64,000 nucleotides of DNA from an uncultured Candidatus Saccharibacteria bacterium (GCA_964487615.1 CAZARM010000005.1:182-64181); one strand, 5' to 3'; counted from the first letter of the stretch, positions 12,376 to 60,275 are shown. Numbers and translations: made by a program. The notes: generated by a model from the letters alone, not told the origin.

Positions 12376-12948
12376 ATGCTAGGGAAGCCTAATACAAAGC
12401 CGGTCTATGCGTTTATAGACAGCCAGAACCTAAATGTCAGTACCCAGAAGTTTGGCTGGAAGATGGACTGGAAGAAATTCCGGCAGTTTCTGACAGAAAA
12501 ATACGGCGTCACCAATGCCTACATGTTCATCGGCTACATGCCAGAGTTTGAGGACATGTACCAGCAACTGCACGAAACCGGCTATCTGATTGTGCTCAAA
12601 CCAACTTATGACATGACGAAGCCGCAAGTCGAAGCCGAGGAAGGCAAGCCAAAGAAAGACGAAGAGCGTCATATAAAAGGCAACATCGACGCTGACCTGG
12701 TGCTATGGGCCATGAAGGAGCTACCCAATTATTCCAAAGCCTTGATAGTATCTGGCGACGGAGACTTCTATAGCTTGATTGAATACCTGGACACGCAAGG
12801 TAAATTACTAAAGCTGCTGGCCCCCAGCGCGCATTACTCAAAGCTATATAACAAGTATGAGCAGCACGTAGAGCGTTTAGATAACTACAAACGGGATCTG
12901 GCGTATCGGACATTTAAGCGCCGACCAGACGCACCCAAAAACTCCTAA
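12376..12948 (+). CDS. NYN/LabA-like domain protein (predicted RNase fold)
   Basis: VYAFIDSQNLNV ... IVSGDGDFYSLIEYL matches the NYN (LabA/DUF88) Asp-containing motifs. Confidence 0.65.
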   Translation: MLGKPNTKPVYAFIDSQNLNVSTQKFGWKMDWKKFRQFLTEKYGVTNAYMFIGYMPEFEDMYQQLHETGYLIVLKPTYDMTKPQVEAEEGKPKKDEERHIKGNIDADLVLWAMKELPNYSKALIVSGDGDFYSLIEYLDTQGKLLKLLAPSAHYSKLYNKYEQHVERLDNYKRDLAYRTFKRRPDAPKNS

Positions 12949-31865: not shown

Positions 31866-32729
31866 TTAACGTATGCCCCAGTGGCCTGCGCCTAAACTGT
31901 ATATTTTGCCGGTGATTTCCAGCATGGTCAGAGTTTGGTTAAAACTGGCGGTCTCTAGTTTGCTTCTGCTAAGTAACTGGGTGGAATCCGTAATGCCGGA
32001 CTGCAGGAGCTTTAAAATAAGGGTTTCTTCCTCGGTGCTGCCGAATAGATCAGTTTGTTGCTGTTTGCTCTCTCTTAACCCCAAGGCTAGCAGAATATCC
32101 GCCGAAGTCGTGACAGCTATGGCACCGGATTTAATAAGGTTATTGGTGCCTTGAGACAAGGGTGAATTAATGTTGCCGGGTACGGCCATGACGGTTCTGC
32201 CCTGATCTAAGGCAAAGTTGGCGGTGTGGATGGTGCCGCTCTTGGCAGCAGCCTCAGTTATAAGTATGCCGTCACTCAATCCCGAAACAATTCGGTTGCG
32301 AGCAATAAAGTTGAGGGGTTGGGTGGTAGATCCTGACGGATACTCGCTGACAATGGCTCCGCCCTGCTCTAGAATCCGCCGGGCCACGTGATAATTTGTG
32401 GCCGGCCCTAGTTGCTCTAAGCTAGTGCCCAACACCGCAATGGTGGAACCATGCATGTCCAGTGCGGCTTGGTGGGCGATGGCGTCCACACCGAGGGCTA
32501 AGCCACTGATAATCACCACGCCTTTATTGGCTACATCTTGGGTTAGCTGCTGGGTGACCAATTTGCCATAAGGAGTGACTTTGCGGCTGCCGACCACTGC
32601 CAAACGTGGCTTCTGAAGTAATGTCTTGAGGTCACCCAGGACATATAGCTCCTTCGGCGGATCAGGGATCATCCGAAGTATCTCGGGATAGTCGGGCGAA
32701 TCAAGCGTAAGCTTCTTGACATTGTTCAT
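31866..32729 (-). CDS. dprA: DNA-processing protein DprA (Smf)
   Basis: LAVVGSRKVTPYG ... ISGLALGVDAIAHQAAL ... TIAVLG ... SEYP is the Rossmann-like DprA core. Confidence 0.92.
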   Translation of the reverse strand: MNNVKKLTLDSPDYPEILRMIPDPPKELYVLGDLKTLLQKPRLAVVGSRKVTPYGKLVTQQLTQDVANKGVVIISGLALGVDAIAHQAALDMHGSTIAVLGTSLEQLGPATNYHVARRILEQGGAIVSEYPSGSTTQPLNFIARNRIVSGLSDGILITEAAAKSGTIHTANFALDQGRTVMAVPGNINSPLSQGTNNLIKSGAIAVTTSADILLALGLRESKQQQTDLFGSTEEETLILKLLQSGITDSTQLLSRSKLETASFNQTLTMLEITGKIYSLGAGHWGIR

Positions 32730-40417: not shown

Positions 40418-40492
40418 GGCCTTATCGTCTAACGGTTAGGACACCAGGTTCTCATCCTGGCAATCCGGGTTCGATTCCCGGTAAGGTCACCA
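40418..40492 (+). tRNA. tRNA-Glu (anticodon CUC), CCA encoded
   Basis: Manual cloverleaf: acceptor GGCCUUA/UAAGGUC; anticodon stem CCAGG/CCUGG with loop UUCUCAU; T arm CCGGG-UUCGAUU-CCCGG. Confidence 0.93.
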
Positions 40493-41114: not shown

Positions 41115-42440
41115 TCAAGTGGCTTTTACTTTTGGTAGTTCCTGCCAGTTGGTGGTGTAGAGGGGGCTGCGGAGGTTGTAGATGGGTCTCCAGGCTTCGC
41201 CCAGGCCTTCGGCGGCTAAACGGATGGTACGGCGGCCGAAGCGGTCATTGATGTGGTCCAGGGCTTGCATGCGCCGAGAGGCTTTGCCGTGAGCAGGAAC
41301 GTCCACGCAGCCGAACAGATCAGTTTGTAACACTGCTGCTGGCACGAAATCATACAGCAGTACGCCTGCCCGGTGATATTTGACCGCTGGATTGTACAAC
41401 TGGCTAAATAAATCGTTCATGGTCTGGGCAATCAAGCCGGTATCGGCCGTTGGTACGTCAAACACTACTTCCTTGCTCCAGCGTCGGTAGCCAGGCTTAT
41501 GTTTATTAGTCGTTACAAATATACCGGCTCGACGCGTTAACTGCTGGCTTTCCCTTAGGCGGTGACTGGCCTGGGAGGTGAAGGTGGCCAGAGCGGCCTC
41601 TACGGCGTGGGCGTTGCCGGTATCGTGGCCAAAGGTGCGGGTGCGGGCAATGCTCTTGCGGACTTTGCCCTCTACCTCCAGGGCGTGACAGCTTACGCCG
41701 TTGAGCTCAGCCACTAGCTGACGACCCAGGATACCCATCAAGCTCTGGGCGCGCCGGGGCGAAAGCTGGCAAAGTTGCTCAGCTGTCGAAATTCCCTCAC
41801 CCCGCAATCTTGGCGCCAGCCTCCACCCAATCCCCCACACCTCCTCCACTGGCGTAGTCTCCAGCCACATGTGAGAGGTCCGTCCTCTCACACTAGCCGT
41901 GAGTAGTGGTGTTTGTGAGAGGTCCGTCCTCTCACAAAAAGAGAGGACGCCGTCTAGTTCGGGGTCTTTTTTGGCCCTGTCGGAAGCTAGCTTAGCCAGG
42001 GTTTTGGTGGGCGCGATGCCAATTGACACTGGCATACCTATCCACTTGAATATCCGGCGCTGGACCTCGCGCCCCCAAGCGGTGTAATCAGTAATCGGTA
42101 GCTCCGAGAGATCCAAGAAGCACTCATCTACCGAATAAACTTCAATTCTAGGCGTAATGGTCGTCAGCAGTTCGATAATCCGGCGCGATATGTCGCCGTA
42201 CAGCTCGAAGTTAGCGCTAAACTGCACTACCCCGTAGTCTTTGAATAATTGCCGGTACTTGAAAGCCGGCGCCGCCATGCGTATACCCAAGGCCTTAGCC
42301 TCATTGGACCGAGCCACGGCGCAACCATCATTACTAGATAACACCACAACGGGTTGGCCTTCCAGGTCAGGCCGAAAGACCCTCTCGCAGGATACAAAAA
42401 AGTTGTTGCAGTCAATCAGAGCAAACAGTGGTTTCTTCAT
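41115..42440 (-). CDS. umuC: Y-family translesion DNA polymerase, UmuC-like
   Basis: FALIDCNNFFVSCERVFRPDLEGQPVVVLSSNDGCAVARSNEAKALGI is near-collinear with the E. coli UmuC N-terminus. EEVWGIG motif present. Confidence 0.9.
   Translation of the reverse strand: MKKPLFALIDCNNFFVSCERVFRPDLEGQPVVVLSSNDGCAVARSNEAKALGIRMAAPAFKYRQLFKDYGVVQFSANFELYGDISRRIIELLTTITPRIEVYSVDECFLDLSELPITDYTAWGREVQRRIFKWIGMPVSIGIAPTKTLAKLASDRAKKDPELDGVLSFCERTDLSQTPLLTASVRGRTSHMWLETTPVEEVWGIGWRLAPRLRGEGISTAEQLCQLSPRRAQSLMGILGRQLVAELNGVSCHALEVEGKVRKSIARTRTFGHDTGNAHAVEAALATFTSQASHRLRESQQLTRRAGIFVTTNKHKPGYRRWSKEVVFDVPTADTGLIAQTMNDLFSQLYNPAVKYHRAGVLLYDFVPAAVLQTDLFGCVDVPAHGKASRRMQALDHINDRFGRRTIRLAAEGLGEAWRPIYNLRSPLYTTNWQELPKVKAT
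41870..41892. repeat. 23-bp palindromic element TGTGAGAGGTCCGTCCTCTCACA, copy 1 (inside umuC)
   Basis: 9-bp arms TGTGAGAGG/CCTCTCACA with a 5-nt centre. Identical to the copies at 41914 and 50018. Confidence 0.9.
41914..41936. repeat. 23-bp palindromic element, copy 2 (inside umuC)
   Basis: Exact 23/23 match, 21 bp from copy 1. Read in a different codon phase from copy 1. Confidence 0.9.
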
Positions 42441-42524: not shown

Positions 42525-42884
42525 TCAGGCTGCTTCATTTGGCGCGTCCTGGCTGACATATTGGTGGATGGCAGTAGTCACGACACCCCAGCACTGACTG
42601 CCACTAGGCAAGCTGGCCCTGTGCCCCAGGACAAAGCTGTCACCTTCCCACCAGATGATCAAATCGTTTTTGCGGGGCGTCAGCACGCGGTCGATAATCA
42701 AGACGTCATTATGGAAAATGCCAAACTCCCGCCAGGTGTTGCCTTCTATGCGCATGTAGAACGTGCCAATGGAGTGTTGCACCAGGTATTTGTTGAGGTC
42801 AATCCCCTGCAAAGTGGTGTCTGATCCAGGATTTGGAAAGCCAGCGTGTACCGAGACTCCCTGGGGGCTGCTATATACAGTCAT
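42525..42884 (-). CDS. umuD: UmuD-like S24 peptidase-fold protein with substituted catalytic residues
   Basis: VHAGFPNPGSD aligns to UmuD VQCGFPSPAADY. GNTW replaces the GDSM nucleophile motif. No Lys at the FTVKK position. Lies directly upstream of umuC. Confidence 0.7.
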   Translation of the reverse strand: MTVYSSPQGVSVHAGFPNPGSDTTLQGIDLNKYLVQHSIGTFYMRIEGNTWREFGIFHNDVLIIDRVLTPRKNDLIIWWEGDSFVLGHRASLPSGSQCWGVVTTAIHQYVSQDAPNEAA

Positions 42885-46776: not shown

Positions 46777-49356
46777 ATGTTTTTCCGAAAAATGCAAAGT
46801 ACCGCTGCTGTTGATGACGGAGCAGTCTTGCTCCTACAAATCCCCCGCACCAACGAGAAAAAAGAGCTGGCCGCCGAGCAAATGTTTGCTAGCCTGCATG
46901 GCTTGCTGACCACCGCTGACAAGACGTTTTTTAAGGCGCCGGTGCACGAGCGCATTAGTTTTGAAATTATTGTTCAATCTAAGCGCATCTGTTTCTATGT
47001 CTGGGTCCCCCAACACCTCAAAAGCTTCGTAGAAGAGCAGATCTATGCCCAGTACCCCACGGTTCACATCTCTGAGGTTGAAGATTATACCGATAACAAG
47101 GCCCAAGCCTATCCGACTAAGCTCATCGGCGAGCTCAAGCTAATCGGCAACGATGCCCTGCCGATAAAAACCTTCCCCAGCTTTGAAGTCGACCCTTTGG
47201 CAGCCATCACCGCCACTCTGGCAAAATTTGAGGATGATGAAGAAGCTTGGCTGCAACTAGTTATGCGCCCAGCGCCTAGCGATTGGCACAAAAAGAGTGA
47301 GAAATACATCGGTAGTATCCGCAACAAAACCGTTGGGGGTAGCAGCAGCTTCGGAGTGGCCACGGCTCTATGGGCACCTCCCGAAGGCAAGAGTGGTGGT
47401 AGCACGGCAGCTAAACTCGCGGAGTACGAAACCGCTCGGGCCAGTGGTGCCGAGAGCAAAGCACAAAAGCTGGCTTACGAAGTGAGCTTGCGCATTGTCT
47501 ACTTGGGCAATGCTTCGCCGGCACATGCCCGGATGCGCATCCAGGCCATTACGGCCAGTTTTAAACAATTCAACACTACCTATCTCAACGGCTTCACGCA
47601 GGATTACTTAACAGAAGATATACGCTTCTTGGATTTGTACCGTAATCGAGAGTTCAAAGGCCGCGGCTTTATGTGCAACATCGAGGAAGTCGCCAGCGTC
47701 TACCACCTGCCGCACACCAATGTCGAGACGCCTAACATCCTGTGGGCGAATGCCAAAACAGCCGAACCGCCAGCCAATGTTCCGTTAGTTTCAGAAGCTA
47801 ACCGGGATGTTATTAGCCCGATTGCGGTGACTAATTTCCGGGGGCACAACACCATGTTTGGACTGCCCCGCGAAGATCGTGGTCGGCACTTATATATCAT
47901 TGGTCAAACCGGCACCGGTAAATCTGGGTTGTTGGAGCTGATGACCATCTCGGATATTTATAGTCCCTACGGTTTTGCCGTCATAGACCCACACGGTGAT
48001 TACGCCCTCAATATCCTGCGACGCATTCCGCCAGAGCGCGCCAAAGACGTCTTGTACTTTAACCCCGCGGACACGGACTTCCCCATTGCCTTTAACCCCA
48101 TGGAAGTTTTAGACGAAAAGCTCAAGACCCACACCGCTTCAGAGCTGATTGGCGTATTAAAACGTATGTTTGAATCCTGGGGTCCTAGACTGGAATACAT
48201 CCTGCGCTACTCGCTGTTGGCACTGCTTGACTACCCCGATGCCACGATGCTGGACATTACCCGAATCCTAACGGACAAAAAGTTCCGTGAAGACGTCCTA
48301 ACCTACGTCCAGGATCCGGTGGTTAGAAACTTCTGGCAGATTGAGTTTGCTAGCTGGAATGACAAGTTTGCCGCCGAAGCTGTAGCGCCAGTTCTGAACA
48401 AAGTCGGGGCCTTCACCGCTAACCCGACGGTGCGTAATATCATTGGCCAGCCCAAGAGCACTTTTAACATCCGTCAGATTATGGATGAGCGCAAGATCTT
48501 GATTGTTAACCTGTCACGCGGACTAATAGGCGAAGACAACGCCGCTTTGCTAGGCGCCCTGATGGTTACCAAGATCCAGATGGCAGCCATGAGCCGGGCC
48601 GACCAAGACCAAGAAGCTCGGGTGCCCTTCTATCTCTACGTCGACGAATTCCAAAACTTTGCCACCGATTCATTTGCCACAATCCTGTCGGAGGCCCGTA
48701 AATACGCTCTCAACCTGACGGTCGCCAACCAGTACATCGCCCAGATGATGGACACCGTTAAGGACGCTGTCTTCGGTAACGTCGGCTCGATCCTGTCCTT
48801 CCGTACTAGCGCTGACGATGCCCGCACCATGATGAAGTATTTCGAGCCGCAGTTTACCGATTTTGACATCGTCCACATGCACAACCGCCACTTTGCGTTA
48901 TCGATGACCATCGAGGGCGAGAAAGCCCAAGCCTTCTCGGCGACCACATTGAATCTACCAGAAGCCGGACCAGATAATAGCGCCGAGATCATTGCTCACA
49001 GCCGGGAAAAATACGCTGTGCCACGCGCTGGCATCGAAGAATTCATGAATAAACGCTACGTGACACCTAGTAAGAACGCCACCTCCGGCCAAACCCCACG
49101 GGCGCATTATGACAAACCTAGGGAGCAGAGGCCAGATAATAGAGTTCAGAGTTTAGAGGACGGAGATCAGGCAGCTGCATTGGCGCCGAAGGAGCCAGCC
49201 ACACCACAAGGAATGGCCAAGAGTATTCTGAACCTGAGTGGTGCAGAAAAGCCCAAGCGCAAACGGACTCGCACCCGTCGCAAGAAAAACCCCGAAGCAC
49301 CAACCCAAACTCCCGTTACCCAAAAGGACGATGAGACGGTACTAAAACTGCACTAA
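46777..49356 (+). CDS. FtsK/HerA-superfamily P-loop ATPase, TraD/VirD4-coupling-protein-like, with large N-terminal domain of unknown function
   Basis: Walker A IIGQTGTGKSGL, then IDPHGDY, Walker B YLYVDEFQNF, and a basic C-terminal tail KPKRKRTRTRRKK. Confidence 0.75.
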   Translation: MFFRKMQSTAAVDDGAVLLLQIPRTNEKKELAAEQMFASLHGLLTTADKTFFKAPVHERISFEIIVQSKRICFYVWVPQHLKSFVEEQIYAQYPTVHISEVEDYTDNKAQAYPTKLIGELKLIGNDALPIKTFPSFEVDPLAAITATLAKFEDDEEAWLQLVMRPAPSDWHKKSEKYIGSIRNKTVGGSSSFGVATALWAPPEGKSGGSTAAKLAEYETARASGAESKAQKLAYEVSLRIVYLGNASPAHARMRIQAITASFKQFNTTYLNGFTQDYLTEDIRFLDLYRNREFKGRGFMCNIEEVASVYHLPHTNVETPNILWANAKTAEPPANVPLVSEANRDVISPIAVTNFRGHNTMFGLPREDRGRHLYIIGQTGTGKSGLLELMTISDIYSPYGFAVIDPHGDYALNILRRIPPERAKDVLYFNPADTDFPIAFNPMEVLDEKLKTHTASELIGVLKRMFESWGPRLEYILRYSLLALLDYPDATMLDITRILTDKKFREDVLTYVQDPVVRNFWQIEFASWNDKFAAEAVAPVLNKVGAFTANPTVRNIIGQPKSTFNIRQIMDERKILIVNLSRGLIGEDNAALLGALMVTKIQMAAMSRADQDQEARVPFYLYVDEFQNFATDSFATILSEARKYALNLTVANQYIAQMMDTVKDAVFGNVGSILSFRTSADDARTMMKYFEPQFTDFDIVHMHNRHFALSMTIEGEKAQAFSATTLNLPEAGPDNSAEIIAHSREKYAVPRAGIEEFMNKRYVTPSKNATSGQTPRAHYDKPREQRPDNRVQSLEDGDQAAALAPKEPATPQGMAKSILNLSGAEKPKRKRTRTRRKKNPEAPTQTPVTQKDDETVLKLH

Positions 49357-49782: not shown

Positions 49783-51186
49783 TTATAGAGCTTCTATTTG
49801 TCGATCGAGGCGGCGTAGGCTAAGTTCTTTGCCTAAAACCGCCAAAGTTTCGGCTAAGCCGGGACTAGAGGGGCTCTGGGTGGTGGCTATGCGGATTAGG
49901 CTGAATAGGACGGCTGGTTTTTGGCCAGTTTTTTCTAGCAATTGGTTTAACCGCCCCTGTAAATCGTCCAGTGTAAAATCGCTCTGCTCCAAGCTATCCC
50001 TGGCCGTACAGAGCCAATGTGAGAGGTCCGTCCTCTCACATTTCCCGAGTTGTTTGTGATTGGTAATCAGTTCAGGATTCACAGGGAGATCAGCAAAGAA
50101 AAACTTGGTGAGATTTGCGAGCTCACCGAAATATTTCAGACGTTCCTGAACCAGGGCAAGGACAGTTTTCTTGTACGCTTCGCTGGCATCCTTGGCCTCC
50201 GCGGGCCAATAGCTCTCGCAGCGTTTATATAGATCGTCTAGGGGTAATCCACGGATAAAGTGGCCGTTGACCCATAGTAGCCGTTGCTCGTCAAAACGAG
50301 CACCGCTCTTCTGTACTTTATCTAGACTGAATTTTTGAATTAGCTCATTGGTAGTAAAGACCTCTTGGGTGGTGCCATCGTTCCAACCTAGCGTGGCTAT
50401 AAAGCTAACCAGGGCCTCTGGCAAGTAGCCGTCACGGATATAATCCAGTACGTCCTTGGCGCCGTCGCGCTTGGACAGCTTCTTGTGCCCGTCTGGACCC
50501 AGAATATGGGGCATGGTGGCCATAATAGGCGGTTTCAGCTCCAATGCCTCGTACAGATTAAGGTAGTTCGGGGTGCTAGCTAAGAACTCCTGACCACGGA
50601 TGACATGGCTAATCTTCATGTCAGCGTCGTCGACGATGTGGGAAAAGTTATATGTCGGGTAGCCATCAGATTTGATTAGCACAAAGTCGTCTACCCCTTC
50701 AGGTCCGGTAGAAATCTCGCCCATGACTTCGTCGTGCCAGGTGTAGGCTTTGGGCTCCGACTTAAAGCGTAGCGGCTGACTACCATCCCAGGCCGGCAGA
50801 TCTTGGGGTCGATGATTGCGGTACAGAAAAGGCTTCTTACTTGCCACGGCTTCGTCCCTAAATTTTTGAACTTCCTGTGTGCTGTATGGATCAGCATAAG
50901 CACGGCCACTGTCGATTAATTTATGAGCCCATGTTTTATATAGACTGAGGCGTTCGCTTTGGCGTATCGGTCCTTCGTCAGGCTTGAGGCCTAGGGCATT
51001 TAGGCTGTCGACTATGTGCTGCCCGGCGCCTTCTACCTCCCGTTTTTGGTCAGTGTCTTCCAGACGCAAGATAAAAACACCGTTGTTTTGCCTAGCTACC
51101 AGCCATGCGAATAATGCTGTGCGAATACCACCGACGTGTAGCAATCCAGTTGGTGATGGAGCAAAGCGGGTTCGAACGATGTTCAT
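49783..51186 (-). CDS. gltX: Glutamate--tRNA ligase
   Basis: RTRFAPSPTGLLHVGGIRTALF (HIGH region) and KLSKRDG (KMSKS). Carries one copy of the 23-bp palindrome in the C-terminal domain. Confidence 0.96.
   Translation of the reverse strand: MNIVRTRFAPSPTGLLHVGGIRTALFAWLVARQNNGVFILRLEDTDQKREVEGAGQHIVDSLNALGLKPDEGPIRQSERLSLYKTWAHKLIDSGRAYADPYSTQEVQKFRDEAVASKKPFLYRNHRPQDLPAWDGSQPLRFKSEPKAYTWHDEVMGEISTGPEGVDDFVLIKSDGYPTYNFSHIVDDADMKISHVIRGQEFLASTPNYLNLYEALELKPPIMATMPHILGPDGHKKLSKRDGAKDVLDYIRDGYLPEALVSFIATLGWNDGTTQEVFTTNELIQKFSLDKVQKSGARFDEQRLLWVNGHFIRGLPLDDLYKRCESYWPAEAKDASEAYKKTVLALVQERLKYFGELANLTKFFFADLPVNPELITNHKQLGKCERTDLSHWLCTARDSLEQSDFTLDDLQGRLNQLLEKTGQKPAVLFSLIRIATTQSPSSPGLAETLAVLGKELSLRRLDRQIEAL
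50018..50040. repeat. 23-bp palindromic element, copy 3 (inside gltX)
   Basis: Exact TGTGAGAGGTCCGTCCTCTCACA, translated as CERTDLSH as in umuC copy 2. Confidence 0.9.
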
Positions 51187-55864: not shown

Positions 55865-55951
55865 GCCGCGGTGGTGGAATTGGTAGACACGCCGGACTCA
55901 AAATCCTGTGAACGCAAGTTCGTGACGGTTCAAGTCCGTCCCGCGGCACCA
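55865..55951 (+). tRNA. tRNA-Leu (anticodon CAA), long variable arm, CCA encoded
   Basis: Acceptor GCCGCGG/CCGCGGC. Anticodon loop CUCAAAA, with one C-U mismatch in the stem. T arm ACGG-UUCAAGU-CCGU. Confidence 0.9.
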
Positions 55952-60185: not shown

Positions 60186-60275
60186 GGAGAGGTCGCATAG
60201 TGGTCTAGTGCGCCGCCTTGGAAAGGCGGTATGGGGGCAACTCCATCGAGGGTTCAAATCCCTCTCTCTCCGCCA
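60186..60275 (+). tRNA. tRNA-Ser (anticodon GGA), CCA encoded
   Basis: Acceptor GGAGAGG/UCUCUCC. Anticodon stem CCGCC/GGCGG with loop UUGGAAA. Long variable arm. T arm GAGGG-UUCAAAU-CCCUC. Confidence 0.92.

Follow-up and report, generated by a model that had tools for sequence, protein, structure and literature searches.

Three copies of an exact 23-bp palindrome, TGTGAGAGGTCCGTCCTCTCACA, occur in a 64-kb stretch of DNA from an uncultured Candidatus Saccharibacteria bacterium (GCA_964487615.1, CAZARM010000005.1:182-64181; below, the window means this whole stretch at its full length of 64,000 nucleotides). Two copies lie in umuC and one in gltX. Most probably, and we would put the probability at roughly 0.8, these 23-mers are members of a repetitive extragenic palindrome (REP) family. 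The family would belong to a REP/RAYT system (RAYT, REP-associated tyrosine transposase) that is widespread in Saccharibacteria and in neighbouring lineages of the candidate phyla radiation (CPR). We make this assignment because the stem of the hairpin recurs across genomes, copies bracket a gene for a Y1 transposase, the flanks of that gene match one another, and the hairpins differ by lineage. REP/RAYT systems are known mainly from Proteobacteria and from a few other phyla. The assignment would extend their range to the ultrasmall Saccharibacteria and to other CPR genomes, which are usually called streamlined. We found no earlier description of a REP/RAYT system in Saccharibacteria in the searchable literature; translated REPs inside genes are known from elsewhere.

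The three copies, at 41870-41892, 41914-41936 and 50018-50040, lie where a preliminary description of the sequence had reported them. All carry the loop TCCGT on the plus strand and share one orientation. The expected number of matches to the 23-mer is 0 (100 shuffles), and the stem recurs in independent Saccharibacteria metagenome-assembled genomes (MAGs), so the earlier judgement that the copies cannot be due to chance holds. As single-stranded DNA, the 23-mer is predicted to fold into a 9-bp stem with a 5-nt loop (-8.8 kcal/mol, z = -4.6), and its 23 nt fall within the size of the short stem-loops typical of REPs (about 20-40 nt). A scan of the window found no further site within seven mismatches of the 23-mer, and the 9-nt arm stands alone nowhere in it. 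An Rfam scan of the window and five related loci returned only three tRNAs and assigned the palindromes to no RNA family. The copies, their host genes and adjoining features are as follows.

41115-42440, minus strand: umuC-like Y-family DNA polymerase gene (441 aa), an intact open reading frame (ORF) that hosts the REP doublet
41870-41892: REP copy 1, TGTGAGAGG-TCCGT-CCTCTCACA, read on the minus strand in phase 2 as (S)VRGRTSH(M) in UmuC
41893-41913: spacer of the doublet, 21 nt, encoding TPLLTA(S)
41914-41936: REP copy 2, identical to copy 1 and with the same loop orientation, read in phase 0 as CERTDLSQ
41941-41949: inverted, half-REP-like 9-mer GAGAGGACG, encoding the conserved GVLS of UmuC
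42525-42884, minus strand: umuD-like Peptidase_S24 gene upstream of umuC, given for context only
49783-51186, minus strand: gltX, glutamyl-tRNA synthetase (467 aa), an intact ORF that hosts the REP singlet
50018-50040: REP copy 3, in gltX, read in phase 0 as CERTDLSH

All copies sit inside intact ORFs and the two in umuC are read in different phases, as had been described. At 41925-41949 the 3' arm of copy 2 pairs with the downstream 9-mer to give CGTCCTCTC-acaaaaa-GAGAGGACG; this inverted half-REP may reflect chance, target-site similarity or a remnant. The gene order in this part of the window, gltX-DUF3048-umuD-umuC, and the best protein homologues both assign the window to Saccharibacteria.

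With the stem of the 23-mer held fixed, the loop left free and one genome taken per species, we recovered 78 copies in 70 loci, mostly from Saccharibacteria/Saccharimonadales MAGs and with several copies per MAG. (L numbers denote the fetched genomic or metagenomic loci that carry palindromes or transposase homologues.) The loop sequence is characteristic of each genome: TCCGT/ACGGA in JBBRZI, UBA5145 and CAYJDY, ACTGT/ACAGT in JBATRZ, CAZXOA and DATIJT, TCTCA/TGAGA in PFEG, TTCGA in CAYGIR, and CTCAG in a MAG labelled 'Elusimicrobia GH52'. Single genomes hold many copies, with at least 14 perfect ones on 8 contigs of JBBRZI and 12 on 11 contigs of GH52. The repeated unit is essentially the hairpin alone, because the sequences that flank different copies are unrelated. 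The same element is found at the same codons in independent NCBI MAGs and in Logan assemblies of the Sequence Read Archive (SRA), contrary to the cloning or assembly artefact for which the preliminary description had allowed. RAYT genes bracketed by the same kind of hairpin also occur on JGI metagenome contigs. In viral contigs there were 0 matches to the stem pattern.

The 12 copies with loop CTCAG in 'Elusimicrobia bacterium GH52' (L011, L022, L027, L041, L043, L045, L052, L053, L059, L067 and L068) are accompanied by a RAYT homologue that shares 47% identity with its Saccharibacteria counterpart; either this bin is misassigned or the system crosses phyla. The same stem was also found once each in L001 and L042 (Actinomycetota) and in L019 and L025 (Deltaproteobacteria), at apparently orthologous ORF positions and with loops CATTT or CTTCC/GGTAT. 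These matches are probably chance or independent hairpins; by our own estimate, ~9 chance matches are expected for an 18-base pattern in 596 Gb. JBBRZI additionally carries a longer composite repeat, in which the REP is followed by CTGCAGAGTTYTAT...GGCAACGATCTGGCATG, arranged in tandem with periods of 87-107 bp (L037:5500-5700, L009:160-280, L048:7341-7420, L064:3639-3720 and L035:1930-2011). This repeat has no Rfam match; in L037 it sits within ~1.2 kb of non-coding sequence that separates nrdR from ftsZ.

The RAYT/IS200-like transposase for which the preliminary description had proposed a search is found in related Saccharibacteria, bracketed by the same 23-mer, and also across 80 metagenomic loci. 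In a tblastn comparison of E. coli RayT with all fetched loci, weak matches appeared directly beside palindromes. The adjoining ORFs are 216-225 aa as called (~209 aa from a conserved MPSRN start) and belong to Pfam Y1_Tnp (PF01797; 37-44 bits against a cutoff of 23). Their sole NCBIfam match is REP_Tyr_transpos (REP-associated tyrosine transposase, NF047646), and the Saccharibacteria RAYT belongs to a distant clade rather than being an equivalog of the enzyme from Proteobacteria. The HUH motif (PNHFHLL; H77/H79) and the tyrosine (SRYIHLNP; Y137) are invariant in 24 homologues. Homologues of the protein number in the thousands and are labelled 'transposase' in Saccharibacteria.

At L040 (MAG JBBRZI) an inverted REP pair stands on either side of the transposase gene. 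The upstream side reads (TGTGAGAGG-TCCGT-CCTCTCACA)-61 nt-(CGTGAGAGG-ACGGA-CCTCTCACA)TG...gene and the downstream side gene...GTGA(TGTGAGAGG-TCCGT-...)-54 nt-(...ACGGA...), such that the gene starts at an ATG overlapping one hairpin's end and stops at a TGA that lies within another. Three of these four REPs are identical to the window 23-mer and the fourth is off at the first base only. The same bracketed layout recurs at L018, L023, L031 and L022, each with its own genome's variant. Across the 80 metagenomic loci, where homologues are 41-62% identical, most genes are bracketed by matching hairpins. A word of at least 10 nt is common to the upstream and downstream flanks at 50 of the 60 loci having both flanks, versus 5 of 60 for a control region. 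The hairpins of these transposase lineages vary (for example TTTCCAAGG.., TTGACAAGG.., TGCACGAGG.. and GCTACCGGG..). Between lineages 8 of the 9 stem pairs change on both sides and the loop-closing G:C is invariant, a count that is partly circular because hairpins were picked as perfect inverted repeats, the difference between lineages being its informative part. These comparisons show that the hairpin sequence changes along with the transposase lineage. In the closest lineages the transposase gene lies between murD and a response-regulator gene (7 loci with at least one checkable neighbour), a context that suggests vertical inheritance.

Orthologous sites give a second view of how closely the hairpins follow their genome. 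The gltX site is occupied in at least four lineages. The window copy has stem GAGAGG/CCTCTC and loop ACGGA; L071 has GAAAGG/CCTTTC with the same loop, L075 the stem of L071 with loop TTCGA, and L076 the one-mismatch intermediate GAAAGG/CCTCTC with loop ATAAA. A comparison of the window with L071 shows 2 differences among the 23 positions of the element, which form a compensating pair, and 10 in the 36 nt upstream. All three copies in L071 (one in gltX, two in umuC) carry the A:T stem variant, and the window's three are all G:C. Both units of the L072 umuC doublet have the loop TTTAT. L004 and L056, whose ArgRS proteins are only 42% identical, share a site in that gene, each copy bearing the loop of its genome, and a KsgA site is common to L032 and L050. 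Had the same peptide been encoded by divergent DNA in orthologues, as the preliminary description considered, this would have been ordinary conserved sequence. The opposite is seen, in that orthologues with the peptide have the palindrome itself, with compensatory stem changes.

We interpret the shared sites either as strong hot-spots that are re-filled or as old copies that are kept and re-matched to the genome's current variant. Either way a trans-acting specificity follows, and the bracketing Y1 enzyme would be the obvious candidate for the factor. In neighbour-joining trees of low resolution, GltX and UmuC sequences with a REP are split over at least two small clades that lie apart among relatives lacking one. 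A single ancient origin of the gltX and umuC copies is not favoured by these two or more clades, at a resolution too poor to separate re-acquisition from ancestry with losses.

The view that the copies are in-frame insertions holds for umuC and fails for gltX. In umuC the doublet spans 22 aa directly before the PVEEVWGIG motif. The window protein has 441 aa, versus 428-434 aa in its ten closest orthologues (71-75% identity; one entry of 766 aa stands apart), all of them without the palindrome. Aligned to the Pol IV structure 7yll from PDB, the extra residues fall at the palm-thumb junction, before the PVxxVxGIG motif. The umuC element is thus a true length gain in a variable linker, and the suspicion that the protein is overlong there is confirmed at ~13 aa against the closest orthologues. 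Two more distant orthologues, in L071 and L072, likewise have a doublet there, with a spacer of ~42 nt, and are ~27 aa longer. The doublet units are direct in the window, inverted in L071 and direct in L072. Other, unrelated insertions occupy the same linker in the UmuC orthologues P0054, P0107, P0119 and the group P0035/P0046/P0061/P0063. The linker of P0054, DCERLNLSQ, is probably another REP variant, and a 21-aa insert at an earlier point in P0119 contains the palindrome-like peptide LAILDVRHSISDTSSIEHRAS.

In gltX, by comparison, the site has equal length in all 120 orthologues. The palindrome takes 8 codons of KLEKSELK-type sequence with no indel, and its peptide, CERTDLSH, resembles the ancestral-type LEKSELKN. 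Length changes at other singlets are -1 aa in DnaG, +3 in ArgRS, +4 in a methyltransferase and +4 in Fpg, where a 23-nt unit predicts ~8 aa. Simple fixed-length insertion therefore fails for the singlets, and we rule out that model. The indel-free gltX copy, together with the concerted compensatory evolution of the stems, offers a tractable handle on how RAYTs maintain REP populations.

To describe genomic location we counted 49 copies in 42 Saccharibacteria loci, taking as intergenic any copy outside ORFs of at least 90 aa. Intergenic copies number 34 of 49 (about 70%), against ~84% coding and ~16% non-coding sequence, as befits repeats that are mainly extragenic; coding sequence is ~tenfold depleted of copies. 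The window, with all three copies intragenic, is a minority situation. Intergenic copies lie at gene 3' ends and between convergent genes, and also in divergent promoter regions. Pairs are found as the inverted pairs of L040 and as doublets in umuC of the window, L071 and L072 and in ksgA of L050. Within long ORFs the copies use phases 0 and 2 only; the third phase has TGA on either strand.

The 12 host families examined all act on DNA or RNA: UmuC, GltX, ArgRS, DNA polymerase I, methylpurine glycosylase (MPG), Fpg, DnaG, TsaD, KsgA, Dus, and S4/FtsJ and RlmKL-like methyltransferases. Among neighbouring genes about one third are nucleic-acid-acting, a rough baseline taken from gene lists and not a formal test. 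REPs inside genes have been reported before (Di Nocera et al. 2013, PMC3733652). Over half of them are dimers or grouped repeats that encode 20-30 aa, with a concentration in genes for repair and replication, for error-prone polymerases and for tRNA synthetases (PMC3733652). The umuC doublet and gltX singlet of the window match that description closely. They repeat, in a distant phylum, an unexplained pattern of intragenic REPs in error-prone polymerases, repair enzymes and tRNA enzymes (PMC3733652). A REP family of this kind would also account for the odd short peptides (CER..LSH and VRG..SH) in Saccharibacteria proteins, and for N-terminal miscalls of the 'transposase'.

The closest parallel is with the 'REPtrons' of Proteobacteria (E. 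coli, Pseudomonas, Stenotrophomonas), in which REP or REPIN (paired REP) elements accompany a RAYT (TnpA-REP). Shared features are short, multi-copy, mostly intergenic hairpins in singlets and pairs; a single HUH/Y1 gene flanked by copies, often as inverted pairs; a repeat that changes with the transposase lineage; and some in-frame intragenic copies, notably in genes for error-prone polymerase, repair and tRNA enzymes (PMC3733652). The Saccharibacteria subfamily differs in that it lacks the terminal GTAG of that REP superfamily (neither the 23-mer nor its immediate flanks in the window have it), its 9-bp stem is perfect rather than imperfect, and its enzyme is ~45 aa longer than E. coli RayT. 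It differs too in having an ultrasmall CPR host, in placing ~30% of its copies inside ORFs, and in the direct rather than inverted arrangement of the window umuC doublet. Other CPR RAYT lineages do have CTAC...GTAG stems (L083, L088, L094, L100 and L136).

The preliminary description had compared the palindromes with REPs, with MITEs (miniature inverted-repeat transposable elements) and with Rickettsia palindromic elements (RPEs). The likeness to REPs stands. The structure of RPEs or MITEs does not, as neither separate terminal inverted repeats nor a CGTC tag at the end was seen. The only CGTC is an internal one in the TCCGT variant, where loop meets stem, and none of the other loop variants contains it. 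RPE-1-type elements measure roughly 100-150 bp. Like RPEs and CGTC-tagged REPs, the Saccharibacteria element comprises translated palindromes in intact ORFs of a reduced genome, with polymerases and tRNA-modifying enzymes among the hosts (PMC3733652). The CGTC family has a terminal CGTC tag and no dedicated transposase (PMC3733652), whereas here a RAYT-like gene goes with a 23-nt unit that bears no tag. The IS200/IS605 insertion sequences (TnpA) share with the Saccharibacteria system the Y1_Tnp family, the HUH motif with catalytic tyrosine, and subterminal hairpins read on single-stranded DNA. Unlike them, the Saccharibacteria loci have no TnpB partner, and their hairpins are dispersed alone, beyond the ends of an insertion sequence.

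How such a system might work can be sketched by analogy with E. coli TnpA-REP and IS200/IS605 (PMC3733652), and we infer mobilisation on that basis. The Y1 enzyme would recognise the hairpin when it is extruded on single-stranded DNA, for example at a replication fork. The HUH/Y1 enzyme would then cut and rejoin at the hairpin foot, spreading copies and keeping them matched to its own specificity. In gene-dense genomes of roughly 1 Mb, some copies would land inside genes. There they would persist only in the two TGA-free frames (CER..LSH or VRG..SH) and in tolerant loops or linkers. The umuC doublet lengthened a variable linker, and the gltX singlet sits in codons that were already there.

Several observations weigh against the assignment to a REP/RAYT system. 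REPIN populations form mutant clouds, whereas the window holds no decayed copies. Described REP superfamilies typically have a GTAG or CGTC tag at one end, and the 23-mer has neither. The tblastn matches to E. coli RayT reach 22-28% identity with E values of 0.002 or worse, and the NF047646 scores of 40-42 bits are under the equivalog cutoff of 80. The indel-free gltX copy and the changes of -1 to +4 aa at other singlets are unlike cut-and-paste or copy-in of a 23-nt unit. There is no RAYT gene within the 64-kb window, and we know of no biochemical activity reported for this enzyme clade. In MAG PFEG the transposase (L031:3130-3890) is flanked by TCCGT-type copies and the dispersed copies (L010, L026, L038, L039, L049 and L056) are mostly TCTCA/TGAGA, which suggests two REP subfamilies or flanking and dispersed copies out of step. 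The REP/RAYT reading does not account for the indel-free gltX copy, for the window being free of decayed copies, or for the preference for nucleic-acid enzymes as hosts.

The copies may be more than passengers that the genome tolerates. In gltX, umuC, argS and ksgA they occupy matching codons in genomes between which the host proteins have diverged to 42-77% identity; each copy there has the stem and loop variant of its own genome, and the length of gltX is unchanged. One possibility is that a domesticated Y1 enzyme rewrites in place, swapping hairpin cassettes between existing sites. Alternatively, host selection may keep hairpins in genes for DNA repair and for tRNA and rRNA enzymes as a RAYT-linked regulatory or genome-maintenance signal. 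We consider these possibilities unlikely, if worth keeping in mind. A role as sites for a chromosomal DNA-binding protein (of the operator, ParB/Noc or MatP type), selected in place and palindromic to suit a dimer, appears improbable. In its favour, several variants (those with ACTGT and CTCAG loops among them) stay perfectly or almost perfectly palindromic through the centre, the loop-closing GG...CC is nearly invariant across lineages, and orthologous positions are kept without an indel in gltX. However, all copies of a genome have the same TCCGT centre although it is asymmetric, and copies at 3' ends, at 5' ends and within genes follow no positional logic relative to promoters. The association with a transposase gene is systematic, and adjacent partial duplicates and doublets are typical of repeat dynamics. 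CRP-like, NrdR-box, LexA-box and parS readings were set aside, the half-site spacing and sequence being unlike those consensus sites.

A motif resembling the uptake signals of Neisseria (DNA uptake sequence, DUS) and Haemophilus (uptake signal sequence, USS) would accumulate by mutation and biased uptake or recombination, that is, by molecular drive, and its variants would be 'dialects'. Such signals likewise are short, genome-specific motifs with lineage variants, tolerated in particular coding frames and retained at orthologous sites. This would suit a gltX copy that sits in existing codons without an indel and encodes a peptide like the ancestral one, and orthologous sites kept in diverged genomes with genome-specific variants; the window also has a DprA gene. 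Uptake signals have many one-mismatch copies and a density of about 1 per kb. Here there are 3 copies in 64 kb, none with 1-7 mismatches and no lone half-sites, and the motif is an obligate hairpin palindrome that brackets a physically linked Y1 transposase gene and changes with the transposase lineage. A literature search found no tie between Saccharibacteria and an uptake sequence. We reject uptake as the main explanation because of the transposase link, the low density and the missing near-cognates, and regard it as distinctly improbable. An origin as a miniature transposon of MITE or RPE type, inserting as a fixed unit that has terminal inverted repeats and duplicates its target site, fits the ~13 extra aa of the window UmuC and the ~27 of L071 and L072, which have longer doublets, as well as copies translated in frame as Rickettsia RPEs are (PMC3733652). 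The conserved unit is nevertheless only the 23-nt hairpin, with unrelated flanks and no duplicated flanking sequence noticed at the copies inspected (no formal search was made). Length changes range from none in gltX to variable elsewhere, the terminal CGTC tag is lacking, and the associated enzyme is a Y1 single-strand transposase rather than a DDE enzyme; we judge this origin very improbable. As for a chance resemblance, or an artefact of cloning or assembly, only the low number of copies in the window speaks for it. The zero expectation in shuffles, the same codons in NCBI and Logan assemblies, and the bracketed RAYT genes on JGI contigs make its probability negligible.

Between the DUF3048 gene and gltX of the window, at 46777-49356 on the plus strand, lies a gene for an 859-aa DUF87/TrwB/TraG-like coupling-protein ATPase, which is present in L076 and absent from the syntenic regions of L071, L072, L074 and L075. 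The DprA gene is at 31866-32729 (minus strand) and an NYN-domain gene at 12376-12948 (plus strand). The tRNA genes are at 40418-40489, 55865-55948 and 60186-60272, one of them ~600 bp from the 3' end of umuC.

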